Shown one piece after another: positions 16,075 through 58,615 of a stretch of DNA of 58,615 bases; the first letter of the stretch is position 1; every line of letters starts with the position of its first letter. The notes beneath the pieces are model-generated. The model saw nothing but the letters and a program-made list of their open reading frames with translations. It had not been told where the DNA came from and did not search any database. The position numbers were made by a program, and so were the translations under genes. This DNA is from Candidatus Omnitrophota bacterium (GTDB taxonomy: Bacteria > Omnitrophota > Gorgyraeia > Gygaellales > Profunditerraquicolaceae): positions 1 through 58,615 of the forward strand of contig JALOCE010000002.1 of NCBI GenBank assembly GCA_023227925.1, written 5' to 3'.

Positions 16075-16091
16075 ATAACAATCGCGCGAGA

Positions 16092-17567: not shown

Positions 17568-18113
17568 ATGCCATCCCCTTGCCGCAATCATATCGAGGAA
17601 GAGCTTGCCGCGCGTGAAGAGCGCGCCGCGGAGGAAGAGGTGGTGCCTGATTTCCATATCGAGGACGAGGAGGTGCCCGATTTTGACGATGATGAGCCCG
17701 AATGGGAGCCCGCGCCGACGGGAATCGCGCTCGACGACTGGGTCCCGGGAATGGAGACGCGCGACGATTGGAGCGACGATACGCGCGCGATATGTGATGA
17801 CGATTACGCCTCCGAGGAAGACTACTCTGCGAGGATGAGCTGGATCAAAACCCCGGTCGGCGGTGATTACTCGTCCGACGATGATTCCGCGTGCGAAGTG
17901 AATCGCCAGCCTACGCCCGATGCGTACGCGACCGACGATGATTCCGCGTGCGAAGTGAATCGCCAGCCCACGCCCGAGGCTTTCGCGACCGAAGATCCAG
18001 ACGGCGGCGCGAGCGCGAGTGGCGATACTCCGCGCGCGAGTATGGAGCATTTCGCGCGGCCCATTCCAGCGCGCGCCGAGAGCGTGTCTCATCTTCTCGG
18101 CGAGGATATGTGA
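17568..18113 (+). CDS. acidic protein with internal 57-nt duplication and one dispersed-repeat copy
   Basis: It is the first ATG after AAAATGAAT (17525-17533). DDDSACEVNRQPTP is duplicated (17877-17920 and 17934-17977). SGDTPRAS at 18012-18041. T6 at 18221-18226. Confidence 0.55.
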   Translation: MPSPCRNHIEEELAAREERAAEEEVVPDFHIEDEEVPDFDDDEPEWEPAPTGIALDDWVPGMETRDDWSDDTRAICDDDYASEEDYSARMSWIKTPVGGDYSSDDDSACEVNRQPTPDAYATDDDSACEVNRQPTPEAFATEDPDGGASASGDTPRASMEHFARPIPARAESVSHLLGEDM

Positions 18114-32477: not shown

Positions 32478-32484
32478 TTGAAAC

Positions 32485-32506
32485 GGGGCTATATTGATAT
32501 AGCCCC
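32485..32506. promoter_or_regulatory. 10-bp-arm inverted repeat GGGGCTATAT-tg-ATATAGCCCC in the 37-bp spacer between divergent starts 32477(-) and 32515(+); candidate bidirectional TATA-type promoter
   Basis: Read directly. Each arm presents TATAT toward one gene. Confidence 0.55.
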
Positions 32507-32514
32507 CTTCAACT

Positions 32515-32949
32515 TTGGCGATGGACACCATATACGACGCGGCGGACGCTTATTGGGGCGCGATGGGAGACGATCGCGCGACCCGCGTGCCGAGCGCGCT
32601 GAAATACGACGCGTTGGTGCGCGAATTGATTGACGCGCGCGCTGCTATTCATTGCGCACAATGCGATCTCGATGAGCGCGCGATTGACGTGGACGCGGCG
32701 GAATCGCGCGCGCGAATTACGCGAGCGATGCGCTTGGCGAGCGACGCAGCGCGATATATTGACGCGAGCGACGCATGCGCGACCGCATTCGCGAACACAT
32801 TTCGCGCCAGCGCGCCCGAATTCGCGCGGATGTTCGATGCGTGCGTCGCGCGCAAGCGAACGTCGCTCATTTCGCTCCCGTCGGCGCTCGATTCGGTCCG
32901 CCTTGACGCGCGCGATGGCGACGGCGCGAAGCCGGGCGCTATCGCGTGA
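32515..32949 (+). CDS. hypothetical protein (144 aa)
   Basis: The ATG lies immediately after the palindromic spacer. T6 at 32965-32970 follows the stop. Confidence 0.45.
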   Translation: MAMDTIYDAADAYWGAMGDDRATRVPSALKYDALVRELIDARAAIHCAQCDLDERAIDVDAAESRARITRAMRLASDAARYIDASDACATAFANTFRASAPEFARMFDACVARKRTSLISLPSALDSVRLDARDGDGAKPGAIA

Positions 32950-38041: not shown

Positions 38042-39754
38042 ATGTACGCGAGCGAGGGCGATATTGATATCGATGGCATCGTTGATCGCGCGCGTGATTA
38101 TGTGATAAAAAACGATCGCCGAATGTTTCTGCCGATATTGCGTGAGATCGAGCAGTTCGCGATCGAGCGCGCGATGATATTCGGGGGCCGCACGGGCGTG
38201 CGCGCGCTATGTATTCGAAACAAGCGCGATGATCCGCCGGCGGACTCTGCGCGCCCAGTCGCGTTCGCGGACGAAACTGAGGTCGCGAGCGACTTGTGGA
38301 CGCTCGAGTTATTCAGCAGTAATATCGAAGTCGATATGGAGGATTGTGTCGTGCGCTTGACGGCGCGATTCGGGCGCGCCGCGGGCTCCGAAGATGGTGC
38401 GACGGCGCCAACGCGCGATCCCGAGAAGATCTACCGCGGCGACTGGCGCACAATATTCCTTCGCACCATTATTCCCGGGCAAGAATATCGCTTATCTGCG
38501 GATTACCGCATCGTCGCCATAGGTTATTCGCTGGGCGAGCGCAAGGGCATCGACATTGCGAGCCTGATCGCGCCAATCGCGCATCGCGGACCGTTTGGCG
38601 CCGCACGCGCGCTATTAATGCCGCACGACATGTTGATCGAAAACCTCGCGCATCAGCTGAGCAATCCGCTGCGCGCGGGGAATTGGTCCGATTACGTCGC
38701 GCAGATATGCGAATTATTCAATGCGCGCGTGACTATTGGCGGCGCGGACGACGCGAGCGGTAGCGATAGCGACGAGGAGCAAGATATGACCGGCGGGCGG
38801 CGCGGGCATCGACATCACCACCGAAAAGATCGCGAGCGCGCCGATAGAGAGCAACCCCGAGCGGATGATCGCGCCCGCGATTATCAACGCGACCGCGAGC
38901 AACAACAACAACCGCGCGAGCAACCGCGCGATCGCGAGCAACTATCGCGCGATCACCAGCGTAATCGCGGGCAACAACCATCGCGCGATCATCAACGCGA
39001 TCGCGAACGCGAGCAACCATCGCGCGCACGCGATAGTGGCGGTGATTTTGATTTCCGCGAGTGTCTGCTGATAGGCGAGCATGCGGCAGAATTTTACGTT
39101 AATCCATCCCGCAACCTCGGTCGCCGCGTGCGCGCGCAATATATCTGCGCGTTTGATGATCTCGATGAATATGCGCGCAGCCTGCGCCTCGCGACGAATC
39201 GCGCGGATGTACGCGTGCCGAACGATTTTCGGCTGCGTAAATCGATTCTCAAGGACGCGCGCGGCGAGTTGATCGCGGATTTATTTAACGCGCTCGCATT
39301 CGAGCCGGTGCCATACGTTGTGGCGCCGCCGGCAGTTCTTGCGCGCTGGCGCGGTGGTGTTCCGGGGGAGCATCCGCTGCGGCGAACGGAACGCGTCGCG
39401 GCACCATTCGTCGTTCTGCGCTTCCTTTTCGTTGATATCTGGGCGCTCGAATATGTCGCCAAATCATCGCGCGATGGCGCGATTGCGACGGCGATGCGCG
39501 CGCAACAAGAGCACCTGCGCGACGTCGCGCACGCGCTGTTCGATTGGATAGCGAATGCGCGCGCGATCAACACACTATTCCCGCGCACGTATGCGGGTAT
39601 TTTCGCGCTGGAGGACGCGCAGAAGCGCCAAGTCAAAGCGAAGATGGAAATCGCGTCACGTGCGCCGGCGCGCAAGGGATTGATGAGCGCGGTGGCGAAA
39701 AAAGATCTCATCGCGCTGGGCAATGAGATAACAAGTCGCGTGGAAGCGATATAA
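38042..39754 (+). CDS. hypothetical protein with internal D/R/E/Q low-complexity insert; N-terminus weakly NTase-like
   Basis: The track start 37988 is non-ATG. ATG at 38042 (MYASEGD). IFGGRTGVRAL resembles the GG motif of 9310..10778 but no DxD follows. Imperfect DRE(Q) repeats at ~38820-39030. Confidence 0.55.
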   Translation: MYASEGDIDIDGIVDRARDYVIKNDRRMFLPILREIEQFAIERAMIFGGRTGVRALCIRNKRDDPPADSARPVAFADETEVASDLWTLELFSSNIEVDMEDCVVRLTARFGRAAGSEDGATAPTRDPEKIYRGDWRTIFLRTIIPGQEYRLSADYRIVAIGYSLGERKGIDIASLIAPIAHRGPFGAARALLMPHDMLIENLAHQLSNPLRAGNWSDYVAQICELFNARVTIGGADDASGSDSDEEQDMTGGRRGHRHHHRKDRERADREQPRADDRARDYQRDREQQQQPREQPRDREQLSRDHQRNRGQQPSRDHQRDREREQPSRARDSGGDFDFRECLLIGEHAAEFYVNPSRNLGRRVRAQYICAFDDLDEYARSLRLATNRADVRVPNDFRLRKSILKDARGELIADLFNALAFEPVPYVVAPPAVLARWRGGVPGEHPLRRTERVAAPFVVLRFLFVDIWALEYVAKSSRDGAIATAMRAQQEHLRDVAHALFDWIANARAINTLFPRTYAGIFALEDAQKRQVKAKMEIASRAPARKGLMSAVAKKDLIALGNEITSRVEAI

Positions 39755-42157: not shown

Positions 42158-42700
42158 ATGTCGAGCGAACGCTGCGATGATGGTAATAATTCGCGCTCGC
42201 GTGCGAATGATGACGCGCGAATACGAGCCGCGCGCTTGCTGGTGGCGGCGCCAATTATTGTTGCATTCGCGGATAACAGCGCGCGCGATGGCGGCGGCGC
42301 GCGCGATAAAATTCTCTCACTTATGCGCGATGAATGGAAGCAAACCGGTGAGATTGTTATGCGTGACTCTGCGCTCGCGCCGTACGACGCGCTGCATCTG
42401 CGAATGAGTAAGGTGCCGCGCGGATACCGCATCAACATCGCGGTTCCCGCGGGATTCGAGCGCGCGCTGCGAGAGAAATTCGCGCTATTCCGCGCAGCTG
42501 CGCGATCGTTTTGGCGCGAAATCGCGGACGATATGACGCGCGCGCGATGCGATGAAGAGCCGCGCGGGCTATGCGAGACAGAATCCGCTGTTTATTGGTA
42601 TACTCCGCGCGCGAACGATGATGAATTTTGGGTCGGGATCGTCGGCTACTTCACGGATAGCTCCGGGAAGAAATATATGGTCGATGGAAAGCGCTGTTGA
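42158..42700 (+). CDS. hypothetical protein
   Basis: ATG is preceded by CCATTATTAAAT. Divergent from 42118(-). Contains a degenerate repeat-like YTPRANDDE (42597-42625). Confidence 0.5.
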   Translation: MSSERCDDGNNSRSRANDDARIRAARLLVAAPIIVAFADNSARDGGGARDKILSLMRDEWKQTGEIVMRDSALAPYDALHLRMSKVPRGYRINIAVPAGFERALREKFALFRAAARSFWREIADDMTRARCDEEPRGLCETESAVYWYTPRANDDEFWVGIVGYFTDSSGKKYMVDGKRC

Positions 42701-43088: not shown

Positions 43089-43184
43089 CTATGCGCGATT
43101 GTTGTCGCGCGTGACCCCCCATTTTTTTCGCGCATACGGACTCGCGTCCACGCAAAAATGAAGACAATCCCTCGCAAAATACGC

Positions 43185-46100
43185 ATGGGTCGCCCGCGAG
43201 TATTTCCGAGGCTGGATCCAGCGATTAATGCGGAACCACTGGCGCGCAAGCGTTTGATTGTATTCTCGCCCAGCGCGCGCAACTATCTGCGATTCGATGG
43301 CGATACATTTCGCGCGTGCGCCGAGCAACTACGCGATGAAATTAGCGCGCGTGCACCGCGTGAGAGTGATTTCCAGGAGGTCATTATCGGCGATGATTGG
43401 CATCGCATCGCGCTAGATCTCGATTACGACTTGCGCGTTGGGGTCAATACAAGCGATTTCGCGCGCGCACGCGATTGGTTCTGGGGCGCGATTCGCGAGA
43501 TAATATGCGCGGCGATCGACGTTTATTATCACATGTTCGACGACGTGATTTCCGCGCGCGATTTTATCGTATGCGAGTCAATCGACCCGCGCGAGCCTGC
43601 GAGAATGGGCGCGCACATAATCATCGCGCGGATGGTCCCTAATTATCGCGTCGCGGCGCATATGACCGACCTTATTATTCGCGCGTGTGATGGCGGCCGC
43701 GATAGCGCGAGTATCGGTGACGAAGAGAGCCATCGCGCGGCTGAACTTATTGATCGCGCGATAAATGCAACGCGACATAATCTGCGATGCGCAGAGTGCG
43801 TAAAACCGGGGTCGCTCCGAATAAAACGCGCGCCGCCGGACGTGTGCTTCGCTGATACATTCGTTGGCGCGCCCGCGCGGCGAGTGCCCGAGGATCGCGC
43901 AGAATATTGGGTAACCGCGTCGCGTCGCGCGGTCAATGGGGCCGATGTCGCGGCAAGAGCCGACGTTACGCGCGCGTGCGAATTGATAGATGCGAAATAT
44001 GGGCGCGGCGTTCATCGCTTTCGCAGACAATGCGGCGCGATCGTCACGTTTGATCGCTTGCGCGCGAGCGATTGCGAGCTATGCGGTCGCGCGCACGATA
44101 AGGATAACACGGTTATTGTCGCCATTTCGCGCGCCCCCGGCGGCGAGACTTATTATCGCGAGCAATGCAGACATAATCTCGCGGAGCGCGGCGGTGGTGC
44201 TATTCTTCTCGAAGCGACGCGCGATGATGACGGAATTGATGATGCGCTCGCACGTGCCGAGGCGCCCATCGCGTCTTTGTCGTCATGGGAATCGCGAATC
44301 GCGCGCGCCGCGTATGCTGAGCCCAATATGCGCGACTATCCACGGTTTATTCCGGGCGCGGATAACACGCTCGCGCGTACCGTATTCGTGCGCGCGCCAA
44401 TGAAGCTGGGTAAAACAAAAGCGCTGTCGCGATATGTGGGCGAATGGGCGCCCGGCGATGCGCGCGTGGTATTTGTGTCGTTTCGCCGCACGTTCTCGGA
44501 TTCTCTCGCGCAGCGCTTTCCAGATTTCTCTCGCTACGATGAGATAAAGGGCGCGCTCGACGCGCCGCGCATGATCGTACAAGTAGAATCGCTGCACCGC
44601 ATCGCGCCCGATAAGCTCGGCGAGATTGATCTGCTCATCCTCGACGAATCGGAATCTGTCCTCGACCAATTCGATTCGGGGCTATCCGCGGACCGCGCGC
44701 ACGATTTCGCGGTGTTCCAATGGCTTACGCGGACCGCGCGCGTCGTTATCGCGATGGACGCGTTTCTCGGCGAGCGTACTTTCGCGGTTCTCGCGCGCAT
44801 TCGCGGCGCGGGTGGTGCAGTTGCGGTGATAAACGATTGGAAAAACGCGCGCGACGATCGCTATTTCATCACATCGAGCCGCGATCAGTGGCTCGCCGCT
44901 CTGCTCGAATGCATCGCGCGGCGCGAGCGCATTGTCGTGTGCGCGAATAGCGCGACTGAAGGGCGCGCGATTAATGAATTACTCACGCGCAAACTCGCGA
45001 CGCGCGATGGTAATACTTCGCGCGCTAGCGTGAGTGATGGTGCCGGGGCGGAATCATGCTCGAACGCGCGCGTAAAATTCTACTGCGCAGAGACGCCGAC
45101 GCATACAAAGCGGCGCGATTTCGCGGATGTCGATCGCGCGTGGATGGACTGCGAGGTGCTAATTTATACGCCGACGCTGACCGCGGGCGTATCATTCGAG
45201 CGCGCGCATTTCGATAGGATGTTCGGCTATTTCACGGATCGCTCATGCGGCGCGCTGACGTGCATCCAAATGATGGGGCGCATCCGCGATATTACCCAGC
45301 GCCAAGCATTTATTTGCCTCTCGACCACGCCAGGATCGCTTCCGGAGACGCGCGAGGAAATGATATTGTGCCTGCGCCTGCGTAAGGGCGCGATTCTGTC
45401 GCGCGATTTGCCCGACGTTGAGTATACCGACGCTGGATTACCTCGCATTCCGGACACCGATTATGCCGAGCTGCGCGTGCAAAACGCGATCGCGCGCAAC
45501 CGCTCGCGTAATGCGTTCGCGGACGAATTCGCGCGCGCGATTTGCTCGGCGGGTGCGCGCGCCGAAAGATTAACGCCAGAGGCGTTCGCGCGGATATTTG
45601 GGCGCGCTGTGGATCCGCAAGAGCTCGGGCGTGCGCATGATGAACGCGTCCGCGCGTGTGCCGAAGTGACCGAGAGAATGGCGCGCGCGATCGCAGAGGC
45701 GCGCGAATTGGTCGGTGATGAGTTCATGGCGCTCGCGGCGGCGCGTGATAATGTGAGCGAAGATGATCGCGCAGCGATGCGGAAATATGAACTGCGCGCA
45801 ACGTATCGCGAGCACTCGCGCCCGTTGACGCCCGAATTCGTGATGACGTTCGCGCGAGACGATCTTATGGTCGCGTTTCGCAACCTGCGCGATTTATGCG
45901 ATGCGTGGGCGCGCGCCCGCAATAACACGCGCGCGCTGGGCGAAATGACCGAGAAGGATGTGACGCTGCGCGCGCTCACCGACATTCGCGCGATCGAAGC
46001 CGCGCATATGCAGAGCGCGACCGCGAGCGAGAACGCCGATGATGCCGCGATTGACGCTGCATCGGCGCGCGAATTCGACTTTGATTACGCGTATGAGCGC

Positions 46101-46454
46101 CACCGCCTCATGTACTGCTGCGTCACGATTCTCGGATTCGAGAGCGTATTTGATCCGCGCATGCTCGCGGTGCGCGAGGTAGAATCGCGCGTGAGCTGCA
46201 ATTTGGGGCGAATATCCGCGGGCGGTGGCGCATTATGGCGCGCGCTTGCGAATCAGTTTAAAGTCGCGCCGCTACGGATCGGTGGGCGCGCGGTCGCGGT
46301 ATCGACTGCGGGTTTCATCGAGGTCGTGCGCGGCGTGCTTTTATCGACGTATGCAATCGCGCTTGTTCGCGCGGGTGATCTTTACCATCTCGAGATCGCG
46401 CGCGAGTTCAAGCGCCAACCGAATGGCACGCTCGTCGTGGCAGCGCCACCGTAA
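43185..46454 (+). CDS. AEP primase fused to UL9-like SF2 helicase (ASFV F1055L-type architecture)
   Basis: N-terminal IALDLDYD (DxD) and GAHIII (H motif). Zinc cluster CELCGRAHD...C.H. Helicase motifs APMKLGKTKA (I), LLILDESESV (II), VIAMDAF (III-like). The track start 43158 lies inside an AAAAATGAAG promoter-like motif, so the next ATG at 43185 is preferred. One dispersed repeat at 45003-45041. Confidence 0.8.
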   Translation: MGRPRVFPRLDPAINAEPLARKRLIVFSPSARNYLRFDGDTFRACAEQLRDEISARAPRESDFQEVIIGDDWHRIALDLDYDLRVGVNTSDFARARDWFWGAIREIICAAIDVYYHMFDDVISARDFIVCESIDPREPARMGAHIIIARMVPNYRVAAHMTDLIIRACDGGRDSASIGDEESHRAAELIDRAINATRHNLRCAECVKPGSLRIKRAPPDVCFADTFVGAPARRVPEDRAEYWVTASRRAVNGADVAARADVTRACELIDAKYGRGVHRFRRQCGAIVTFDRLRASDCELCGRAHDKDNTVIVAISRAPGGETYYREQCRHNLAERGGGAILLEATRDDDGIDDALARAEAPIASLSSWESRIARAAYAEPNMRDYPRFIPGADNTLARTVFVRAPMKLGKTKALSRYVGEWAPGDARVVFVSFRRTFSDSLAQRFPDFSRYDEIKGALDAPRMIVQVESLHRIAPDKLGEIDLLILDESESVLDQFDSGLSADRAHDFAVFQWLTRTARVVIAMDAFLGERTFAVLARIRGAGGAVAVINDWKNARDDRYFITSSRDQWLAALLECIARRERIVVCANSATEGRAINELLTRKLATRDGNTSRASVSDGAGAESCSNARVKFYCAETPTHTKRRDFADVDRAWMDCEVLIYTPTLTAGVSFERAHFDRMFGYFTDRSCGALTCIQMMGRIRDITQRQAFICLSTTPGSLPETREEMILCLRLRKGAILSRDLPDVEYTDAGLPRIPDTDYAELRVQNAIARNRSRNAFADEFARAICSAGARAERLTPEAFARIFGRAVDPQELGRAHDERVRACAEVTERMARAIAEARELVGDEFMALAAARDNVSEDDRAAMRKYELRATYREHSRPLTPEFVMTFARDDLMVAFRNLRDLCDAWARARNNTRALGEMTEKDVTLRALTDIRAIEAAHMQSATASENADDAAIDAASAREFDFDYAYERHRLMYCCVTILGFESVFDPRMLAVREVESRVSCNLGRISAGGGALWRALANQFKVAPLRIGGRAVAVSTAGFIEVVRGVLLSTYAIALVRAGDLYHLEIAREFKRQPNGTLVVAAPP
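45003..45041 (+). repeat. dispersed repeat, single copy (sense; RDGNTSRASVSDG) in the primase-helicase
   Basis: CGCGATGGTAATACTTCGCGCGCTAGCGTGAGTGATGGT. Confidence 0.85.
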
Positions 46455-46499: not shown

Positions 46500-46530
46500 A
46501 ATGATGGTAATACTCTGCGCGAGTGATGGG
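46500..46530 (+). repeat. dispersed repeat, degenerate intergenic copy
   Basis: AATGATGGTAATACTCTGCGCGAGTGATGGG lies between stop 46454 and start 46560. It is followed by GAATATACTCCGCGAA-ATG. Confidence 0.7.
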
Positions 46531-47382: not shown

Positions 47383-49191
47383 CTATTTTTTCGCACCGCG
47401 CGGTGCGGTTCCTCGCAGTGCTCGCTGTGCTGCGAGCGGAATTTGCTGCACCGGCGGCGGCTTATCGCGCGGGCGCGATTTTGCTGCCGTTGGAGGCGGA
47501 CCCAATCGCGGCGCGCGCGTAATAGCGTCGGTTGCGGCGGATGCGACATTATTCGCGATTACGCTCGCAAGCGCGTCTTGTGGCGTTGCGAATGGCGCGA
47601 AGAAGAACCCATGCAGGCGTTGCTTTATTGTGCGGCGCGTCATTGTGAGCGCGCGATCGAGAAGGGAAATCGCGCTCGCACTCGCGCTCGCGTCGGTCGC
47701 GCTAGGATCGCGCGCGCGGACGTATCGCGCGAGAATATCCAGCGCGAGCGCGCAATCACAGCAGCCATCGAATCCCGGCACGCTATCGAAATGCGCGCGG
47801 TTATTTTCGACGAAGCGGAATTGGCGCATCAGATTGTAGTAAAACATGGCGTTCTCATGATCGCGCGCACTATATTCGCGCATGCGCGTGTACTCGCGCG
47901 GCGTCGCGACAAGACGCACCTCGGATGAGGCCGCGCCCGGAAACGCCTGCAAATTAAGCGCGGCACAGTCAATAAATGGATATTTGCGCGCGCGATAAAG
48001 CGCGAGCAGATCAACGCCGAATCGCGCGTTATATGCGGCGATGGTTGCGCCGTAAATGCCCGCGCCGCCATATTCGACGATGGAATCCAGATCGCTCGGA
48101 TTCATGAACGGCGTGCGGAATTTGAGCATGCACGCGTCGGGTCGCAATATATCGACCCACGTGTGCTGCCACGCGTTATTTGCGAGAATATCTATGTCGC
48201 TCGGGCTATCCGATTCTTCCTCGTCGGCCGGGTTGCCTCTGCGCCGTTGCGGCGCTTCCGCGGCGCGAATATTGGTGCGGATATCCGAAATAAAATAGAC
48301 GCGCTGCGGGTGGTCGCGCGCGAGGTATTTGAGCGCGCGCGCGAGATCATCGGTGAATAGGTCCTCGATGATGTAGAACGTGTATTTCGGCTCGCGGACG
48401 ATGACCCGCGCGATTTCATCGGGCGAGAGATGCGCGAGCGTTCGCGCGACGCCTTTATTCGCGCGAATTATGCCGTCGCGCGTCGCGAAATCGATCTCGA
48501 GATTGGGAAACTCGGTCGCGCTCGCCGCGCGGAAATAAAGGCGGTCGCGCGGATTACTGCCCATGATATTATGCTCTTGCGGGTCGATGAGAATGAATTT
48601 CGCGCGCGGGAACATATTCGCCAGCATTTGGCGCGTGTGTCCGGGGCCCGATCCTGCATAAATGACGTACGCTGTACTGCCGGATGATGGCGGCGCGTCA
48701 TCACTCACGGCAAGCCGCGAAGTATTGTCATCACTCACGCTCGCGCGCGGAGTATTGTCATCGGCGCGAATGCATTCGCAGGCGTAATCCGTGAGGAATT
48801 GTATCTCCGATAAGAGCAATTTGAGCTGCCCCACGTGCAGCGACGTACGCGCGTGCCGTATCAATCGATACGGCACGGCGCCCGGAATATCGGCGACGCG
48901 AATTATCGGGGCAGCATCGGGCGGCTGTGGCGCGCGAGTTATGTCCGCGATCGCGCTCATAATGTGCGGTTGGCTCAATTCGCGAATCGAAGCGCATATT
49001 CGGGAGCAGTGCGCTCCGCGGTCGCGATGGGGAACGTCGTCGCGACCGCTACCACCGCCGCCGACGCCGGGGGTAGACGCGGTTTTCATCGTATCCGCGC
49101 GAGATATAGATCGCGGGCGCGCATTCAAAATTCCGATTATTAGCGTAACTATGCACGCGAGCACCGCGACGACCGCGGATATGATGATCAT
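47383..49191 (-). CDS. VP39/FtsJ-like mRNA cap 2'-O-methyltransferase with N-terminal TM segment
   Basis: YAGSGPGHT (SAM motif I), LIDP, FISDIRTN, CMLKFRTPF. N-terminal IIISAVVAVLACIVTLIIGIL. ATG is preceded by GCGCGCGAAATATAA. Confidence 0.72.
   Translation of the reverse strand: MIIISAVVAVLACIVTLIIGILNARPRSISRADTMKTASTPGVGGGGSGRDDVPHRDRGAHCSRICASIRELSQPHIMSAIADITRAPQPPDAAPIIRVADIPGAVPYRLIRHARTSLHVGQLKLLLSEIQFLTDYACECIRADDNTPRASVSDDNTSRLAVSDDAPPSSGSTAYVIYAGSGPGHTRQMLANMFPRAKFILIDPQEHNIMGSNPRDRLYFRAASATEFPNLEIDFATRDGIIRANKGVARTLAHLSPDEIARVIVREPKYTFYIIEDLFTDDLARALKYLARDHPQRVYFISDIRTNIRAAEAPQRRRGNPADEEESDSPSDIDILANNAWQHTWVDILRPDACMLKFRTPFMNPSDLDSIVEYGGAGIYGATIAAYNARFGVDLLALYRARKYPFIDCAALNLQAFPGAASSEVRLVATPREYTRMREYSARDHENAMFYYNLMRQFRFVENNRAHFDSVPGFDGCCDCALALDILARYVRARDPSATDASASASAISLLDRALTMTRRTIKQRLHGFFFAPFATPQDALASVIANNVASAATDAITRAPRLGPPPTAAKSRPRDKPPPVQQIPLAAQRALRGTAPRGAKK
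48697..48762 (-). repeat. dispersed repeat, ~2 units, reverse on + strand, sense in the methyltransferase (DDNTPRASVSDDNTSRLAVSDD)
   Basis: GTCATCACTCACGGCAAGCCGCGAAGTATTGTCATCACTCACGCTCGCGCGCGGAGTATTGTCATC. Confidence 0.9.
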
Positions 49192-50098: not shown

Positions 50099-50222
50099 TG
50101 CGCGCGCCGCGCGCGATTATTTTTTTCGCTCACGCGCGCATTTATCGCTCGCTCGCTCAAGCGCTCGCGTGCGCATTTATCGCTCGCTCGCTCAGCGTTC
50201 GCGCGCAAGATATACTCGCGGA

Positions 50223-50954: not shown

Positions 50955-52310
50955 TCAAGTCTTTCTTTTTTTGCCCGCGCGCGGATGCGATGGCGCCGGC
51001 GTTGCGCTGGTGGCGCGCGCTCGCGCGAATACTGGGTCGAGAAACTGATGCGCGAGAATAGTCCGCGCGTGCTCGCGATCCGCGTCCATATACTGCAGAC
51101 CCAGGCGCAGAAACTCCTCTATCTGGGTCATTTGGTTGCGGTTAATATTATGGTAATTCGCCGACATAAACTGCGTGATCGTGCCCGATTCGAGAGCGCG
51201 ATGATAGCGCGGCACGCCATTATGATAAAATTCGCGCGCGCGATGGTCGCCGCAGAATATTTCGGGCGGTTTGCCGATGACGCGCCACATGAGAACGACG
51301 TGCGCGTAGAACATCGGAAAATCAATATCGTCCGCGACATCATCGCCGCGCGATTCGGTGTCGGCGCAGCATGAGTCGCTGTCAGCGCTGCGCGAATCGT
51401 GTGCGAGTGATGGCGATGCTTCGCGCGACGAGGCGTCGCTCGCGACCGCGAGCCCGGTAAGATCGAAGCCGTAATCCGCACCATCCTCGCCGTATACGTC
51501 GAATAAATTATCGCCCGTTATGATCGAGAATATCGTGGCCATCGCGGACCATATATCCGCGCCGTGCGAATATGGTCGCCCGATCAATATTTCGGGCGCG
51601 ATGAATGGGATCGTTCCGACGCACGCCGGCTGGAGCAGATCGGCGCGCGCGAGCTCACGCGCTGATCCGAAATCGCATAGTATTGTGTCCAGCGACGTTA
51701 CAGTTTTCGCGTCGAACGCCGGCGCGGCGCGGATCATAATGTTGCCGGGCTTGATGTCGCCGTGAACGATTCCCGCCGCCTGAAGGGCGTCGAGCGCGAG
51801 GAATAAGTTCTTCGCGATGGTGAGCGTCGCGAGCGCGGGTAATCCCGCGTCGAATTGCGCGACGTGCTCGCGTATGAAGTCCTTCAATCGCATCTCGTAG
51901 CGCGGCATTATAACGAACGGTATCGTTTCGAGGGCGTGCGCTGCGCGCAGCGTACTGTGCGCGATCGCGCTACCGAAACCGTCAACGCGCTCGACGTAAT
52001 CGCGCGCGCCGGCGGTGGTTGCGAGGGTGCGATCAAGCGCGCGCATGGCGAAAATAGTGCGGCGGAATTGGCGCGCGCTGCCGAATATTTTCACAACAGC
52101 GCAGTCAGAATGGTGCTCTGTCGGCGAATCGCATGGCGCGCACTCGTAAACGCTGCAAAACGTACCGCTCGCTATTTTATCGCCGATGGTATATGTGCGC
52201 GCCGCGACGGCGTCAGCGACGCGCGCTGCGTCGCCGCCATTCGTTGGTTGCGTTGTTATCCATCGCTCGGCGAGAATTGTCTGTCCGGTGATATGTTGCT
52301 GCGCATCCAT
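50955..52310 (-). CDS. Ser/Thr protein kinase
   Basis: VVKIF (Lys), HGDIKPGNIMI (catalytic loop), CDFGSA (DFG), FIAPE (APE). ATG at 52310 is preceded by CCCATATACATTGCG. A Ser/Asp-rich insert holds a degenerate antisense repeat (51406-51429). Confidence 0.85.
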   Translation of the reverse strand: MDAQQHITGQTILAERWITTQPTNGGDAARVADAVAARTYTIGDKIASGTFCSVYECAPCDSPTEHHSDCAVVKIFGSARQFRRTIFAMRALDRTLATTAGARDYVERVDGFGSAIAHSTLRAAHALETIPFVIMPRYEMRLKDFIREHVAQFDAGLPALATLTIAKNLFLALDALQAAGIVHGDIKPGNIMIRAAPAFDAKTVTSLDTILCDFGSARELARADLLQPACVGTIPFIAPEILIGRPYSHGADIWSAMATIFSIITGDNLFDVYGEDGADYGFDLTGLAVASDASSREASPSLAHDSRSADSDSCCADTESRGDDVADDIDFPMFYAHVVLMWRVIGKPPEIFCGDHRAREFYHNGVPRYHRALESGTITQFMSANYHNINRNQMTQIEEFLRLGLQYMDADREHARTILAHQFLDPVFARARATSATPAPSHPRAGKKRKT

Positions 52311-52402
52311 CGCAATGTATATGGGACCGCGCGCGCCACTTTTGAACGGGTTGCGCGCGGGAAAAAATAGCGCGCGAACGCGCGTATTCGCGCACGCGCC
52401 AC

Positions 52403-53815
52403 TCATTTCTTCGGCGCCGCCGCCACTCTCTTCTTCGTGACGCGCAATACGCGAATGATGCGCGCGATTTCGCCGCGCGCGGCGAGATGAGGGAAATGGC
52501 GCTTCGCGATGCATCGCAGTCGCGCCGAGCATATTATCGCGCGCGAGAACTTGAGAAACGTGTTTTTCTTGATGCCGCCGGACATCCCATCAATATCGCG
52601 GATCGCGATCGGGTAGTGCATCGCGACGATAATAAACCATATCGCGCCGACGATTTTGCTCTGTAGCTGGCTGCGCACGCCGATATAATGGCGAATGGAG
52701 CTCATTACGACCGCGCGGATGAATTTTATATTCGCGCGGTTAATCGTGTCGCGCAGTAGTGTCGCGATATCAGCGTGCGCGGCGGTGTTGCTCGGCGATT
52801 CATCGGGCGCGGTTTGCGCTGGCGGCTCATCGGACGCGACAGACGAATCACTCGCGGGCGCAGATTGCGCGATGAATGCGCCAAGCGTTTTGCCGTAATA
52901 GAACGCGATTTTATTGTCGCATATCTGCGCGTCATCGTCGAGCGTAATGTTGCCATCCGCGGATTGCAGAAGCAGTTGCTCGTAACCGCGCGAGAAACCT
53001 TCTGTGCGCAGCCCCATCATCTCGGCGATCTCTTTCTTGCTCCGCTGCTCCGTGCGCCCGCATTCGGCGAACAATATTGCCGCGAGAATCTCATTCTTGA
53101 CATCGCCGCGCCGCACGTATGGCGCGCCCTTGGCGAGCGCGTTGCGTTGGATATCATTATAAACGCGCGCGGTCGCGATAATTGCCGCGGTCGACGGCGC
53201 GAATGGCGCGAGCGCGCCCGCACTATCGATCCGCGAGCTATTGAGAACGTACGGTAAGCCTCGGCGCGCTGCAATCACGCGCAAATAGGTTTCGCGGCGC
53301 TCGATTAGGCTCTCGTACACGTTATTGCGCTGGGCTTTCATCGGGTCGCTCGAGCTATAATGGCGGCGCGGATCGCGTTTATGCGTCATATCGCTCGTGA
53401 GATGATCATCGATATGCGGCGCGATGCGCTTGCAATGCGAGCACACGTATTCATCGCCCTGCGTGTCCATCGCGATCGCGCACGACGGGCATATATTCGA
53501 ATTCGCGCCACCGCGCACCGGCAATGGAGCGTCGCTATCGTCTGGCGCGTCGCTCGCGCATCCATCGCGAAGAAACTGCTGTGCAAGATCGCTACCGGGC
53601 GTCATATCGGGCTCCATGGCTATCGTTTTCGCGGCTTCTTCAAATTTCGGGCGGGCTTTGCTTTTAAGCACGCGGGCGTTTAAATCGCGGGCGCGCCAGC
53701 GCGCTGGCGTGGGTGCGCGCGGAGTATTGTCATCACTCGCGCGCGGAGTATTGCCATTACCACCCAACGTCGTTCCCGATGCGAATAACGACCGGCCCGT
53801 CGTCCGCGTCGTCAT
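52403..53815 (-). CDS. TFIIB-like transcription factor
   Basis: Zinc ribbon CPSCAIAMDTQGDEYVCSHCKR is followed by cyclin-fold-like helical repeats (ILAAILFAECGRTEQRSKKEIAEMMGL). The track start 53863 is GTG. ATG at 53815. The N-terminus carries two repeat units. Confidence 0.55.
   Translation of the reverse strand: MTTRTTGRSLFASGTTLGGNGNTPRASDDNTPRAPTPARWRARDLNARVLKSKARPKFEEAAKTIAMEPDMTPGSDLAQQFLRDGCASDAPDDSDAPLPVRGGANSNICPSCAIAMDTQGDEYVCSHCKRIAPHIDDHLTSDMTHKRDPRRHYSSSDPMKAQRNNVYESLIERRETYLRVIAARRGLPYVLNSSRIDSAGALAPFAPSTAAIIATARVYNDIQRNALAKGAPYVRRGDVKNEILAAILFAECGRTEQRSKKEIAEMMGLRTEGFSRGYEQLLLQSADGNITLDDDAQICDNKIAFYYGKTLGAFIAQSAPASDSSVASDEPPAQTAPDESPSNTAAHADIATLLRDTINRANIKFIRAVVMSSIRHYIGVRSQLQSKIVGAIWFIIVAMHYPIAIRDIDGMSGGIKKNTFLKFSRAIICSARLRCIAKRHFPHLAARGEIARIIRVLRVTKKRVAAAPKK
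53715..53761 (-). repeat. dispersed repeat, 2 units (24 nt), reverse on + strand; sense in the TFIIB-like gene (GNGNTPRASDDNTPRA)
   Basis: GCGCGCGGAGTATTGTCATCACTCGCGCGCGGAGTATTGCCATTACC. It also overlaps the last codons of 53757..58181. Confidence 0.9.
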
Positions 53816-56800
53816 CGCCGTGATCCAGATCGAACGAATCGAGAGAAAATGGGTCCGTTTCACCGTCGCGCGCGTCGTCGTCCGCGGGCACTATTTCGGC
53901 GCCCGCGTCCTCATATTCATCATAGAGCATCGCCGCAGGATCGGACGCGGCGATATCGAAATCGTCATTTGCGAGCTTCGTCCCCTCGACGACGCTCAGG
54001 CTGAAGCGATCGCCGCGGATGGTTATGTTTTCGCGCGCGAAAAGGTGCGCGACGAACGTGCGCGCGAACACCGCGGTTAGCGGCCGCGATGGCGCCGCCG
54101 CCGCGCCATCCGCGCGCGGCTTGTATTGCGCGAGCGCGCTGAGAACGCGACACAGTGTTTCCAGATAGAAATCGACGATTTTGGCCGTTTTATCGTGATA
54201 ATGCTCCGCGAACATCAATATGACGCGCGCGAGAATAATATCGCTCGCGAACGCGGATGCACCCGCGCCATCGGGCTCGAGATTGCGCACGATCGGTGCT
54301 ACAATATCACCCAGCGGCGGAAGCTCGGACGCCGCGCGATCAAACGCGGGGCCGCCGCTCGCGTATTCGCGCTTGAGATCATCCGCGAATTGCGCGACCG
54401 AGCGCGTGATTGCACCGCGGCGACCACTGCGCAACAGATCACCGCGGATGACATTATAGAGCGCGAAAATCTCGAAAATGTACGAGCGTAACGCGAAAAT
54501 GCGCGCGCTGACGCTGGATTTGGGGACGGGCGCGACGTATGATTCATCCGCGAGCTTGTCGCGCGTTAGACCCTCGCGCGCGCCGAGCGTTTGGAAATCG
54601 CGCCTCTCAATGCCGAACACGGCGGCTGCGTCGACGAGAATTTCATAATTGAGCGACCACGGTTGTCGCGCGATTGCGCGCGCTATTGTATCAATATCCT
54701 CATCGCGCTTGGAAACGCGGCGCCCAGCGATGGTCGTAATGGGCGCGGGCGACGCGATATGCTCGCGGAATTTCGCGATATGGCGATCGAAATAGGCGCG
54801 ATCGTAGCTACGCGCGAGCGCGGATGAATATCCGCATTTAGTGCATGCGGGCGCGATCGCGTCGGTTGAGCTCGCGAACGCGTGCGGACCATCGGCGGGG
54901 CATCGCGCCTCGTAGAACTGGTAGAAGTTCTCCATGGCCGCACGCGCGTCTATGGCCGCGCGAATGGCGCGATCGTCGAGCGCGGACGTTTTCGATTGGA
55001 GAATGCCGCACGCGGCGCATTTTTTGTCGATATACGCGATATCCGCGCGCGCGAATGCGTCGGACGCTTCGGGCGAGCCGAATTTTACCTCGATTATCGG
55101 TCCGGGCGCCACGGTAGGCGCGAAAATGAGAACGTTCCACACATGCGCGACGCCATTCTCATCGTATACTGCGCCGAGTGTACGCGCGCGCGTTGGCGTA
55201 TTATACGATGAAAATGGCGGCGCGTGCGCGCGAATGATTGAGATTTCGGGTACGCGCGTCGCGGCGCCATCAGCGCGACCCGCGCGAGCGATGGATACGC
55301 TTTCGGCGGCGCGTTGCGCGGCGTTCTCGGCGGAATGGCGCGCGCGAATGTCCGTTATGGCGCGATCGGTGGTCGCGATCGCGTAATCGAATAAGCGATG
55401 CTCGATAATCTCGCGCAATCGCGCAACGATACCCGACCGCGCATTACTACAGCGCGCAAATAGAGGCGCGAGGATATTTTTCGGGTCACTCGGCTTCTCG
55501 GGGAGCGCCGCGAGCGCAGCGTACTCGTAATCAAACGGGTCTTTATTATTGCGCGCGAGTGATGGTAATACTCCGCGCGCAAGCGCGAGTGATGGTAATA
55601 CTCCGCGCGCAAGCGCGAGTGATGGCGCGGCGGTGGCCTGACGCGCGAATATGCCGGGGCACGCGTTGTGAATAATCGCGATTAATGGGTCATACATCGC
55701 CACCGCGCGGTAATCGCGAGGCGGTGATTCGAACGGCATATCCGCGGCAACGGTCCCGAGCTCGCGAATTGCCGCGCTAATGCGCGCGCCGATAACATCG
55801 CGCGTGAATCCGGGGATCTGGTTCAGCGCAACATTCTCGACGAGTGCGATCTTATCGATCGCGTTTTTGATCAAAATCGCGCGCGCGCGTTTGTCATCCG
55901 AGTCGCGCGGGAGCGTGACTCCATCGAATATGATCCCCATGCGCTCCGCGTTGACGATCGCGTCCGCGAAGACATAAATCGCGATGTAGACGCGCAGGCG
56001 CGCCGAAAGCTCGGACGCGAGACTTGTTTGCGCGATGGCTATGCGTCCCTCAATCATCTCGATATGCGGATAAATATGCTGTGCGACGTTGCGCGCGAAT
56101 GCGGCCTGATCGGTAACGCGCGTGGCGCGGATGAAGCGCGAAATCATATTAATCTCGCGCAGAATATCATCCGCGAGCTCTTTATTCTCGGACGTCGCGC
56201 GATCAACATCATCGGAGACCGCGAGCGCGTGCTCGAATTGCGCGCCGCAAATGCGGCAATAATAAAGCCCGCGCCCCGGAATGCGATCGATATATTGCGC
56301 AATGCGATCGCGCTCGTTCTTGCGCGTCCCATGTTGCGCGATGACATTCGCGATGTCGAGCGTGTGTGGGCAAATCGCATCCTGCGAGCACAACGCGCAT
56401 TTTATCATCGCGCTGGGGTTCTCGGACACCGCGTTAGCGAGAATTTTCGAAAGAACCGCGAGCGCGTCCGCGATGGCGCGCGCGGTAGTGGAGCGCGCGA
56501 GAGTCGCAACCGCGCGCATATGCTCGCAGTGCGCACGCGCTGGCGCGGTACGGCGGAAGGCGGCGTAAGACGCGAGAATGAACGCGCGCTCATCGGGCGA
56601 TAGCCGCGCGAACAATTCGTGCTCACTCGCGACGCGCAGGCGAATGCCGCGCGCCACAAGATTCCCGATTTCGGGACCCATGCCGCCGAATGGATCGCGC
56701 GCTATACTGCGCGCTATTTTACGCGGGAAGTTATCTTCGATGAGAGACGCGAGAATTTCGAGGCGGTTCATGTTCGCGCGATGATCCGCGATCGCACGTA

Positions 56801-58181
56801 CCGTTGCCGCGCGCGATGCTGCGGCGGCGCGAATCGTCTCTGCTGCGTCTGCCGCGGCAGGGGCTGGGTCGTCGAGATGCGCGATGCGAAAGTATGTGTC
56901 GGATGCACCCGCGCGCATAAAATCCGCAATGATGGACGCGCGATCGCGCGCGTATGGAAGCGCGAATCCGAGAAGGCGCGCGATTTCGAAGAGCGATTGC
57001 GCGCGCGGATCGGTGGGAACAACATCTATTTCCTCGCCCTGTGCGTTATCCGCGAAATCGCGGTCGTCGGCGTGCGGGGCCGTTGTCGCGTCGGGGCGCG
57101 CGAAATAATATTGCTGGAATAGGAGCCGCAGGTGGAGAAATATCTTCGCGTACGTCGCGGGCGGAGGAGTGGGAGCGATAGCGGGAGTAATAGCGGGAGC
57201 GGGAGCGACGCTATCGCTGGCCATCGAAATGATGCGCGGAAGATATGGTTCGCGCGGATCGAATGCAAACGCGGGCCGCTCTGGTTGTGCGCCGATGGTC
57301 GTAATCGCGAGCGCGCCCGGAATCACGCCGACCGCGAACGCGCTGGTCTGGCTCGGCGCGAAGGCGAGTTCCATTATTTCGACTGAGATATTGGGCGGAA
57401 TGACGGTCGCGATCGCATCGCGTTGCGTGCCCGCCATTGTTGCGATTATGCGCTGCGGGAACTGTATTCCGGTTGTTTCGCGCGCGCGCGGCTGCGTTGT
57501 CGCGGGCGCTCCTTGGCTTGTTGAGGATAACGGCACCGCGGTCGCGATGGTTATTGTCGGAATCGCGGTTATGCGCTTGGTGATGCGATGCGCGCGGACC
57601 GTTTTTCCTCGTATTATTTGCATCAGATTGCTCTTGCGCGCGCGCTCGGCGAACGTTTCAGTCGTGATCGGGCGGCAGCGCGGGACGATTATCGGCGCTG
57701 GGAACAACCGCGAATCCTGCGCGATAAGAATGAGTTGGCGCGCCATTATCTCGGGATTCGGGTGTCGCCGAAACGTCGCGCGCGTGATCGCGGCGTGATT
57801 CGCGAGCACAACGAAATGGCGCGCGAGCGCGCGATCGCCGTCAACATCGAGCATGAATAGGCGCTCTTTATCCGCGTCCGGTGCCGAATAGATATCCGTG
57901 AATTGGCGCGCGGTGTCGTATACCTCGATTATGCTTTCGTCCGCGCTCGTGGGTCTGTCGCGCGCCTGCGCACCGACATCGCGCGCAGGCACGATACCAG
58001 ATGATTTAGTGCGCGGTAACGCGTTACCGCGCCGGCGCGTATTTCCATTCGCGCGCGCGGGCGAAATTTGAAACGGCGCGAGATCCGGATATTCATCGCG
58101 CGCGAATTCATCCCCACCGCGCAGCACGCCACCTATTCTCTCTGCGAGCCGCGGCGCGTAGTCAAAACTGACGTCAGTCAT
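53757..58181 (-). CDS. large (1474 aa) protein with several CxxC zinc-ribbon-like pairs and an acidic tail; function unknown (possible large transcription-factor subunit)
   Basis: It is a long ORF of normal composition with KCALCS...CPH...YYCRICG, KKCAACG and CTKCG. ATG is preceded by AAATATATAGAAATCG... The VETF-L/A7/G1340L assignment is only a size- and context-based guess. Confidence 0.8.
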   Translation of the reverse strand: MTDVSFDYAPRLAERIGGVLRGGDEFARDEYPDLAPFQISPARANGNTRRRGNALPRTKSSGIVPARDVGAQARDRPTSADESIIEVYDTARQFTDIYSAPDADKERLFMLDVDGDRALARHFVVLANHAAITRATFRRHPNPEIMARQLILIAQDSRLFPAPIIVPRCRPITTETFAERARKSNLMQIIRGKTVRAHRITKRITAIPTITIATAVPLSSTSQGAPATTQPRARETTGIQFPQRIIATMAGTQRDAIATVIPPNISVEIMELAFAPSQTSAFAVGVIPGALAITTIGAQPERPAFAFDPREPYLPRIISMASDSVAPAPAITPAIAPTPPPATYAKIFLHLRLLFQQYYFARPDATTAPHADDRDFADNAQGEEIDVVPTDPRAQSLFEIARLLGFALPYARDRASIIADFMRAGASDTYFRIAHLDDPAPAAADAAETIRAAAASRAATVRAIADHRANMNRLEILASLIEDNFPRKIARSIARDPFGGMGPEIGNLVARGIRLRVASEHELFARLSPDERAFILASYAAFRRTAPARAHCEHMRAVATLARSTTARAIADALAVLSKILANAVSENPSAMIKCALCSQDAICPHTLDIANVIAQHGTRKNERDRIAQYIDRIPGRGLYYCRICGAQFEHALAVSDDVDRATSENKELADDILREINMISRFIRATRVTDQAAFARNVAQHIYPHIEMIEGRIAIAQTSLASELSARLRVYIAIYVFADAIVNAERMGIIFDGVTLPRDSDDKRARAILIKNAIDKIALVENVALNQIPGFTRDVIGARISAAIRELGTVAADMPFESPPRDYRAVAMYDPLIAIIHNACPGIFARQATAAPSLALARGVLPSLALARGVLPSLARNNKDPFDYEYAALAALPEKPSDPKNILAPLFARCSNARSGIVARLREIIEHRLFDYAIATTDRAITDIRARHSAENAAQRAAESVSIARAGRADGAATRVPEISIIRAHAPPFSSYNTPTRARTLGAVYDENGVAHVWNVLIFAPTVAPGPIIEVKFGSPEASDAFARADIAYIDKKCAACGILQSKTSALDDRAIRAAIDARAAMENFYQFYEARCPADGPHAFASSTDAIAPACTKCGYSSALARSYDRAYFDRHIAKFREHIASPAPITTIAGRRVSKRDEDIDTIARAIARQPWSLNYEILVDAAAVFGIERRDFQTLGAREGLTRDKLADESYVAPVPKSSVSARIFALRSYIFEIFALYNVIRGDLLRSGRRGAITRSVAQFADDLKREYASGGPAFDRAASELPPLGDIVAPIVRNLEPDGAGASAFASDIILARVILMFAEHYHDKTAKIVDFYLETLCRVLSALAQYKPRADGAAAAPSRPLTAVFARTFVAHLFARENITIRGDRFSLSVVEGTKLANDDFDIAASDPAAMLYDEYEDAGAEIVPADDDARDGETDPFSLDSFDLDHGDDDADDGPVVIRIGNDVGW
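55558..55627 (+). repeat. dispersed repeat, 2.3 x 30-nt units forward on + strand but ANTISENSE to the host gene (read as PSLALARGVLPSLALARGVLPSLA)
   Basis: AGTGATGGTAATACTCCGCGCGCAAGCGCG at 55558-55587 and 55588-55617. Confidence 0.95.
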
Positions 58182-58221: not shown

Positions 58222-58615
58222 ATGTCCGCATCACAAGAACGCCCGCACGAGGGAGGTATATTGCGCTCGCGGAGAAGTTTGCGCGGCGCGGATGGCGGAG
58301 CGCGGCCCGCGATTGCGCCGCAACAGAACACATCGACGCTCGAGCGCGTTCTCGCCGAGGCGCGAGAAACGTTCGCGCAGAGGCCGCTATTATCGCGCGA
58401 TATTTCATCGTTCTTTGGTGATCGCGGGTTCGCGATCAAGATTGCGGGCGATGGTAATACTTCGCGCGCAAGCGTGAGTGGCGATAGCACTTCGCGCGCA
58501 AGCGTGAGTGGCGATAGCACTTCGCGCGCAAGCGTGAGTGGCGATAGCACTTCGCGCGCAAGCGTGAGTGGCGATAGCACTTCGCGCGCAAGCGTGAGTG
58601 GCGATAGCACTTCGC
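58222..58615 (+). CDS. repeat-array protein, 3'-partial (not in ORF track because no stop within window)
   Basis: ATG at 58222 is preceded by TCTATATATTTCGATTCAGT. My manual translation (MSASQERPHEGG...FAIKIAGDGNTSRASVSGDSTSRASV...) is open and in the sense frame of the repeat to the window edge. The track's minus ORF 58203..58610 is the antisense shadow. Confidence 0.55.
   Translation, partial: MSASQERPHEGGILRSRRSLRGADGGARPAIAPQQNTSTLERVLAEARETFAQRPLLSRDISSFFGDRGFAIKIAGDGNTSRASVSGDSTSRASVSGDSTSRASVSGDSTSRASVSGDSTSRASVSGDSTS
58447..58615 (+). repeat. tandem array of a 30-nt variant unit (AGTGGCGATAGCACTTCGCGCGCAAGCGTG, about 5.6 copies); runs off the right edge
   Basis: The first unit carries GATGGTAATACTTCG as in the dispersed copies. 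Later units (58477-58506, 58507-58536, 58537-58566, 58567-58596) are identical to each other. Confidence 0.97.

Follow-up and report, generated by a model that had tools for sequence, protein, structure and literature searches.

The repeat at 55553-55627 of the DNA analysed here raises the question of what sets the orientation of a short sequence unit that many unrelated genes read in one sense frame and a few read antisense: the translated product, or the DNA strand itself. The DNA, hereafter the window, is a complete metagenomic contig (JALOCE010000002.1) of 58,615 bases with about 60% G+C, and the genome carrying the repeat family is that of an uncultured giant virus with genes resembling those of African swine fever virus (ASFV; p49, M1249L) and of poxviruses (poly(A) polymerase subunit). 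A preliminary description had recognized the repeat, its antisense copies and their numbers, and had proposed that the unit is tolerated in exactly two of six reading frames, that the antisense copies keep the same DNA polarity, and that a strand-polarity bias accompanies the sense bias, as expected of an oriented cis-acting site or of insertion tied to replication direction. Our analysis indicates that the feature is probably a single locus of a coding minisatellite that is young, lineage-specific and dispersed, and whose copies are filtered through translation, rather than an oriented replication-linked site; the repeat, its counts, its antisense copies and the sense bias hold up, whereas the two-frame limit, the DNA-level polarity and the status given to two of the copies do not.

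At the locus itself, Tandem Repeats Finder (TRF) reported a perfect 30-nt x 2.4 tandem repeat at 55553-55625, and the family core occurs at 55558 and 55588 with 0 mismatches to the consensus. Within the open reading frame (ORF) 53757-58181(-) the repeat is translated antisense as ...SLALARGVLPSLALARGVLPSLA..., in a poorly conserved linker (aa ~853-875) where two homologues align unconvincingly. This ORF is a genuine gene: over its full length it can be aligned with a related-virus homologue of 1406 aa (34% identity), and it matches ASFV M1249L with E = 7e-20. The number of units is not fixed, with two in the window versus one in P0075/L036, a 99%-identical strain from Joint Genome Institute (JGI) sample Ga0378408. 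A further strong antisense copy has its core at 15858-15880 and uses this reading frame too; its host ORF 15058-16116(-) was called independently in the annotation of another assembly and has a C-terminal domain with homologues.

Both copies belong to a family with a unit of 24 or 30 nt and the core GATGRYAATACTYCGCGCGC, found at ~50 independent loci in unrelated genes; allowing up to 3 mismatches, the 23-nt core has 20 matches in the window, compared with 0.01 expected. The locus catalogue covers the window and 14 further stretches of the same genome, ~190 kb in total (L-numbers denote other metagenomic contigs compared with the window). A degenerate pattern scan of JGI metagenomes yielded 12 further element-bearing contigs, all from sample Ga0265297, which share the composition of the window and have no mutual overlap of at least 150 nt at at least 90% identity. 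Contigs from the European Nucleotide Archive (ENA) proved the scaffold joins window-L004, L020(reverse complement)-L028-L003 and L007-L022-L008, adding links and no new element loci, and from identical units at both contig ends we infer that L011 joins the window start. Copies were scored with a profile of the 24-nt core at a threshold of at least 10 bits, which gave 103-113 matches in real sequence versus 1-2 in reversed sequence and 0.4 in shuffles, and genes were called with a codon-usage model trained on long ORFs, key calls being checked by homologues, independent calls and flanking coding scores.

The census of frames and orientations is strongly one-sided. About 32 loci are read in sense frame 0 as SD(D/G)NT(P/S)RA, a hydrophilic peptide (grand average of hydropathy, GRAVY, ~-1.3). 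Sense frame +1, giving AMTILRA, is used at two strong loci (L008:4662, inside a helicase gene, and L020:10765) and two weak ones, and the stop-containing sense frame +2 at five loci, each of which forms the stop codon of a co-oriented upstream gene, 53715-53761 included; all three sense phases are occupied, the stop-containing phase being confined to gene 3' ends. On the antisense side, the LARGVL frame, the most used and the most hydrophobic of the antisense frames, holds two strong copies, both in the window, and two to three weak ones, and the other two frames hold two weak copies. One locus (46500-46522) is truly intergenic, and three lie on the repeat-rich contig L010, which has no confident genes. 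Among 25 high-confidence internal genic loci, 20 are in sense frame 0, one in sense frame +1, three in the antisense LARGVL frame and one in another antisense frame (21:4). All genic loci together comprise 36 sense and 5 antisense copies (binomial p = 8e-7). The unit is open in sense frame 0 and, in some variants, in frame +1, frame +2 carrying TGA or TAA stops, and its three antisense frames are all stop-free, as the preliminary description had stated; frame usage was accordingly set against a stop-aware null with two open sense frames among five open frames, and the sense excess remains (p = 3e-10).

Restriction to two frames is thus loosely true of the window only, because AMTILRA, the stop frame and the other antisense frames are used in the genome at large, and use of a single antisense frame describes the strong copies, all LARGVL, and not the weak ones, two of which lie in other frames. 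Within the window every copy in a plus-strand gene is indeed sense, and two of the three antisense LARGVL cases originally listed are solid (55558-55627 and 15858-15880), the third, at 51406-51429, being degenerate at 10 bits. The copy at 53715-53761 had been counted as sense in a minus-strand gene; it is effectively non-coding, as its first unit contains the stop codon (TAA) of the M1249L-like gene (GGG TGG TAA TGG) and strain L036 has a 16-nt deletion here (53705-53722) that is not a multiple of three. This deletion is bounded by GCGCGC direct repeats, which shows that microhomology-mediated indels occur in this genome. The same strain carries a 33-nt in-frame insertion at ~52197, in the neighbouring gene.

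Three candidate causes of this distribution were rejected. The codon phase of the host's CGCGCG hexamers does not account for the choice of frame, since the three phases are similarly frequent. Seeding at GATGAY (Asp-Asp) microhomology, which predicts 47% of loci in sense frame 0, 18% in sense frame +1 and 21%, 6.5% and 8% in the antisense frames, fits better than a uniform null and fails as the sole cause of frame and orientation (hand chi-square p ~0.001-0.01), the 21% predicted for the SIVIT antisense frame not being seen. Nor are the antisense copies local inversions of a nearby sense copy, their nearest-neighbour distances showing no difference from those of other loci or random positions.

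What has been copied between loci is the DNA. Conservation over 39 independent loci shows no codon (3-base) periodicity, synonymous positions being as fixed as others; the variable unit positions are 8, 9, 16, 24 and 29, and the changes there mostly alter the peptide (D/G, P/S). The element always uses AGT and ACT, though these make up only 7% of serine and 9% of threonine codons genome-wide. Since rare codons and synonymous sites are invariant, DNA rather than peptide was copied, and the copies are young or homogenized. The copies are also insertions: relative to related-virus orthologues, that in the D5-like helicase adds 16 aa at an alignment gap and that in the VP39-like protein adds ~22 aa. 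No copy of the element occurs in 72 kb from three related viruses (43-52% G+C); the family is lineage-specific. These data bear directly on the idea that SD(D/G)NT(P/S)RAS is a functional peptide module, selected as a linker, phosphorylation or interaction motif. One dominant reading frame (32 loci), a hydrophilic product and the placement of copies in linkers and alignment gaps would be expected of such a module; a variation that is mostly non-synonymous (N/S as well as D/G and P/S) with synonymous sites and rare codons fixed, the presence of the same DNA in other frames, antisense and in non-coding DNA, its absence from the related-virus orthologues and a copy number that differs between near-identical strains would not, and we regard this explanation as very improbable.

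In structure and behaviour the arrays resemble minisatellites, combining head-to-tail units within the 10-100-nt range, multiple-of-three periods in ORFs and copy-number polymorphism; a classical viral variable-number tandem repeat (VNTR), by comparison, has its unit at one locus. The period is 24 or 30 nt in all genic arrays, and a 28-nt spacing at L020:10765 shifts the frame between adjacent units. Like slippage arrays, the loci open in the unit tail (GCGYG) and close with an incomplete unit (AGTGATGR). Head-to-tail tandem copies of at least two units occur at 16/32 sense-frame-0 loci versus 1/9 in other frames, an enrichment with p = 0.014 by Mann-Whitney and p = 0.056 by Fisher test. At L004:6604-6718 an intergenic variant array, in which all six frames contain stops, has a period of 31 nt (GTGATGATAATACATTGCGCGCCAGCGCGAT x 4) and begins at the TGA stop of the upstream gene. 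In an assembly with 0 mismatches over 20.5 kb the array at 15365-15428 has one 24-nt unit fewer, and both the ENA assembly and L004 have a shorter array at 58448; comparison with three further assemblies, from this virus or from close strains, shows changes in copy number only, never in location. The arrays are the fastest-changing sites between samples and thus usable as strain markers. They also mark assembly ends: window positions 1-187 and 58447-58615 and the ends of L011, L012, L020, L022, L025 and L028 lie within element arrays, so the repeats evidently break assembly, and ENA assembly ERZ27247363 spans some of the breaks with fewer units.

Dispersal in unrelated genes, mostly in frame and as insertions relative to orthologues, in a burst specific to one lineage, would also suit a miniature non-autonomous mobile element, comparable to a Rickettsia palindromic element (RPE) or a miniature inverted-repeat transposable element (MITE) and mobilized in trans by a nuclease or transposase that recognizes a specific target sequence; a short palindromic segment does span each unit junction. 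However, 24-30-nt units in head-to-tail arrays with a partial last unit are typical of slippage, terminal inverted repeats are absent, no transposase is found among the window ORFs, and strains differ in copy number and not in the location of copies. The flanking GATGRY hexamers, part of the repeat unit itself, agree in 5/15 single-copy loci, which is about chance given four common variants and therefore gives no target-site duplication. A mobile element in this sense is improbable.

Whether orientation also follows the DNA strand was the most far-reaching of the earlier proposals. Its count of about 13 forward and 4 reverse copies agrees with ours (~14 and ~4). According to this proposal the element would be an oriented cis-acting DNA site of the Chi or KOPS (FtsK-orienting polar sequence) type, or its insertion would be tied to replication direction, giving one polarity per replichore; the window's forward excess, the forward orientation of both strong antisense copies and a correlation among contigs between orientation and positive or negative strand-independent GC skew (Fisher p = 0.005; p = 0.02 without the window) point that way. 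The strand-independent skew component is +0.04 to +0.10 or -0.03 to -0.08 by contig (window >12 kb; L011, L013, L021, L028). Yet the G-rich strand also holds ~65% of the coding length, and the polarity bias is largely gone once each sense locus is conditioned on the coding share per strand of its contig. The independent contigs then show 16 loci where 13.95 are expected (p = 0.24); adding the window raises this to 24, with 19.1 expected (one-sided p = 0.05). When scaffolds are tested for heterogeneity without use of the skew, p is 0.35. The window belongs to the longest scaffold (~115 kb), on which 15 forward and 4 reverse sense loci stand against 11.1 forward expected (p = 0.10), a small residual excess, and the skew signs run + + - + +, without two clean domains and hence without a simple two-replichore pattern. 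Negative-skew contig L011, which probably adjoins the window, still has forward copies, and 36/41 genic loci follow the gene strand.

The shared polarity of the antisense copies reduces to two strong cases (p = 0.5), and the antisense copy L011:7446 (15 bits), probably on the same scaffold as the window, has the opposite orientation, weaker antisense copies showing both polarities. Replication or DNA-strand polarity is therefore not supported, and the underlying explanation is highly unlikely, although a small residual polarity effect may escape a sample of ~50 loci. In the sequence covered, orientation essentially goes with the gene strand and few copies are antisense, the outcome that the preliminary description had set against its own proposal, yet the few antisense copies cluster in one frame. 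As a caution, a sense bias combined with uneven gene orientation can mimic DNA-strand polarity in a window of 58 kb.

For the coding minisatellite that we favour, the following course of events is suggested. In so CGCGCG-rich a genome, template switching or illegitimate recombination may seed new loci, which would then expand through replication slippage. Selection on the translated insert would then remove most copies outside the innocuous sense frame, leaving as survivors a few short antisense copies in variable linkers, such as that at 55558-55627, and the forward excess on the + strand would follow from the sense bias together with the particular set of genes that carry copies. Several observations weigh against this account. 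No case of whole-locus presence/absence polymorphism, and hence no seeding event, was seen among the assemblies compared. Since all three antisense frames are open, only strong selection at the level of translation would yield a sense excess of ~8:1, and the antisense frame used is the most hydrophobic one, a choice that a simple rule of tolerance for hydrophilic peptides would not predict. The co-orientation of six terminal or intergenic copies with their neighbours hints at an orientation constraint not mediated by a peptide, and the residual forward excess on the window scaffold (15:4) has to be added. The rarity of antisense copies, their hydrophobic frame and the co-oriented non-coding copies together leave limited but appreciable room for a constraint linked to transcription.

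Such a constraint would make the sense orientation intrinsic to the element, which would act in RNA or on the non-template strand, through a predicted hairpin ACUC(C)GCGC-GNNA-GCGYGAGU across unit junctions, or would be copied in a transcription-coupled way. The five 3'-terminal copies and the truly intergenic one are all co-oriented with neighbouring genes; synonymous positions and rare codons are invariant; the sense excess is strong though three antisense frames are open; and under the common C/T polymorphisms at unit positions 16 and 29 the predicted hairpin retains its pairs, as G-C or G-U, on the sense strand only. On the other hand, C/T transitions are the commonest mutations anyway, the hairpin is only marginally stabler than shuffles (z ~-2), the 24-nt unit does not form it (z = +0.9), and no compensatory base pairs were found in it, only one-sided G-C to G-U changes. 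Only one of the six copies is truly intergenic, the other five overlapping a stop codon and remaining translationally constrained; antisense copies persist and even vary in copy number; there is no Rfam match at the gathering threshold; and arrays within essential genes make a processing or termination signal unlikely. Taken together, a transcription-oriented element is rather unlikely. Its fuller version, in which a sense-strand signal (the junction hairpin with a GNRA-like loop) or transcription-coupled copying makes entry sense-first and translation sorts the phases only, we consider unlikely; if true, a giant virus would harbour a new type of micro-element, self-propagating and polar with respect to transcription.

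Comparison with known systems helps to place the family. RPEs, functionally its closest analogue, are described as repeats inserted in frame in many unrelated genes, with one conserved peptide and at function-compatible sites (Ogata et al. 2000, via PMC10969869), and as ~100-150 bp long, palindromic and in single copy per site (PMC10969869). The present family is likewise selfish-looking, spread over unrelated coding genes, overwhelmingly in frame and with one main peptide; it differs in its 24-30-nt units, its copy-variable tandem arrays, the absence of terminal inverted repeats and target-site duplications, and its residence in a eukaryotic giant virus. The central variable region of ASFV B602L, the reiterations of herpesviruses and the ORF94 repeats of white spot syndrome virus (WSSV) are locus-specific in-ORF tandem units, multiple-of-three and strain-variable. 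The family shares with such viral coding VNTRs the multiple-of-three units in ORFs, strain-variable number and slippage-type dynamics, and departs from them in that one unit family extends over ~50 loci and turns up in antisense orientation, in other frames and in non-coding DNA as well. Palindromic amphipathic repeat coding elements (PARCELs) are, like the family, intragenic tandem repeat coding sequences with dyad symmetry, dispersed and variable in number; they encode a 25-residue amphipathic domain, are transferred horizontally across taxa and are linked to membrane proteins, whereas the unit here has 8-10 residues, is hydrophilic and weakly palindromic and is found in one viral lineage.

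Among giant viruses, the pithovirus M1/M2 MITE-like repeats are palindromic sequences of ~140 bp that cluster in non-coding DNA, carry inverted repeats at their termini and have putative TA target-site duplications (PMC10664404). Together with the pandoravirus Submariner MITEs they resemble the family as lineage-specific bursts in Nucleocytoviricota, possibly spread by recombination, with close relatives lacking them. Both of these earlier invasions involve longer, palindromic, non-coding repeats; the present units are about five times shorter and lie mainly inside genes, in frame. Chi, KOPS and the repetitive extragenic palindromic sequences and bacterial interspersed mosaic elements (REP/BIME) are, like the element, short oriented DNA motifs in many copies, but Chi and KOPS are skewed to replication direction independent of genes and REP is extragenic, whereas the present element is oriented along the gene strand and translated in most of its copies. 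A keyword search of open-access full texts turned up no account of an in-frame micro-repeat family dispersed in Nucleocytoviricota genomes, which is no proof of absence. An exact-pattern scan of IMG/VR viral contigs gave 0 matches, and a composite peptide query of all five open unit frames against a 5.8-billion protein set gave nothing at E <= 10 among 332 word-sharing candidates, possibly because the query is of low complexity. By these comparisons, in-frame repeat invasion and coding VNTRs appear to be already known, and what differs here is one short unit family at ~50 loci of a giant virus. The occurrence of one unit in dozens of unrelated genes offers a compact natural experiment on repeat invasion of coding sequence and its filtering by translation, in which core genes have been invaded (Mre11-Rad50, D5-like helicase, cap methyltransferase-like and M1249L-like genes).

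Table 1 Element loci of the window, with the gene that hosts the repeat under study and hallmark genes
Position	Strand	Feature	Reading or context
1-187	+	30-nt x 6.2 array, contig start	sense (SDDNTPRASV), partial ORF 1-933
12038-14008		ASFV p49-like protein	hallmark gene
15365-15428	-	24-nt x 2.7 array of a variant subfamily (AGTGGCGAAAGCACTCCGTGCGCG)	sense in ORF 15058-16116(-), read ASGESTPC
15854-15896	+	one unit and partial second	antisense in ORF 15058-16116(-), read SLALARGVLSSF
17447-17467	+	weak copy, 12.5 bits	antisense, different frame (SIAIT), start of dNMP-kinase gene 16852-17478(-)
18021-18037	+	weak partial copy, 12 bits	sense (GDTPRA), ORF 17568-18113
21138-21176	+	single copy	sense (DDNTPRTSASDD), ORF 20356-21342
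21634-26202		Mre11-Rad50 fusion	hallmark gene
22855-22877	+	single copy	sense (GEGNTPRAS), Mre11-Rad50 fusion gene
24513-24604	+	24-nt x 3.7 array	sense (SDGNTPRA), Mre11-Rad50 fusion gene
26534-26552	-	weak copy, 9.7 bits	sense frame 0 (DGDTPC), UvrD-like helicase gene 26241-28580(-)
28692-32531	-	RPB2	hallmark gene
34639-34739	+	30-nt array, ~3.5 units	sense, ORF 33007-34893
42177-42198	+	weak copy, ~15 bits	sense (DDGNNSR), near start of ORF 42158-42700
43158-46454		D5/Herpes_ori_bp-type helicase	hallmark gene
45003-45042	+	single copy	sense (RDGNTSRASVSD), D5/Herpes_ori_bp-like helicase gene
46500-46522	+	single copy, truly intergenic	47 nt past helicase stop codon, co-oriented with both flanking genes
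48716-48763	-	two units	sense (DDNTPRASVSDDNTSR), PARP_regulatory/VP39-like gene 47383-49191(-)
51406-51429	+	weak, degenerate possible copy, 10 bits, >3 mismatches	antisense in kinase gene 50955-52532(-), SREASPSLA
53715-53761	-	two 24-nt units	co-oriented with flanking genes; region effectively non-coding
53757-58181	-	host gene of the repeat, 1474 aa	ASFV M1249L homologue, no Pfam domain
55553-55627	+	2.4 exact copies of 30-nt unit AGTGATGGTAATACTCCGCGCGCAAGCGCG	antisense to 53757-58181(-), LALARGVLPS x2
58447-58615	+	one canonical unit, then ~5 variant units (AGTGGCGATAGCACTTCGCGCGCAAGCGTG)	sense, off contig end

The nucleocytoplasmic large DNA virus (NCLDV) hallmark genes encoded in the window are given in Table 1; the catalytic and VP39-like subunits of poly(A) polymerase and a protein kinase are also among its genes, and the closest relatives of RPB2 are metagenomic proteins with at most 74% identity. 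The Mre11-Rad50 (SbcCD-like) fusion gene carries two element loci, and related viruses have the gene without these inserts; enzymes of the Mre11-Rad50/SbcCD class process hairpins and DNA ends. At the far end of the window, the gene that runs through 58447-58615 carries on into contig L004. A phage-database similarity search and a transfer RNA (tRNA) scan gave no match. Of the sister contigs, L007, L008/L022, L012, L020, L021 and L028 bear the NCBI label of a 'Candidatus Omnitrophica bacterium' metagenome-assembled genome (MAG; locus tags M0R66_*) and L025 that of a 'Patescibacteria group bacterium' MAG, and the window proteins are likewise deposited in NCBI. Because the gene content of the sister contigs is that of a giant virus, their MAG looks like a mis-binned giant virus.

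In composition the window and sister contigs are alike, with CGCGCG at ~10/kb overall and ~14/kb in coding sequence, GCG accounting for 72% of alanine and CGC for 71% of arginine codons, and GAT preferred over GAC and AAT over AAC. The short contig L010 (1-1967) has a lower CGCGCG density, no confident gene and other direct repeats of ~75 nt; its three single element copies all have one orientation, and it could be a non-coding repeat region. The genome is prone to tandem duplication in general, and further in-gene tandem repeats unrelated to the family lie in the window at 17868-17996 (57 nt), 28453-28520 (18 nt), 38870-39026 (18/36 nt) and 50127-50206 (35 nt). Another unrelated tandem array of 21 nt x 5 (CTTGCGCTGCGCGAGCGTCGT) is located at 5445-5550, inside the helicase gene 4366-7032(-), and differs between two assemblies that are otherwise identical.

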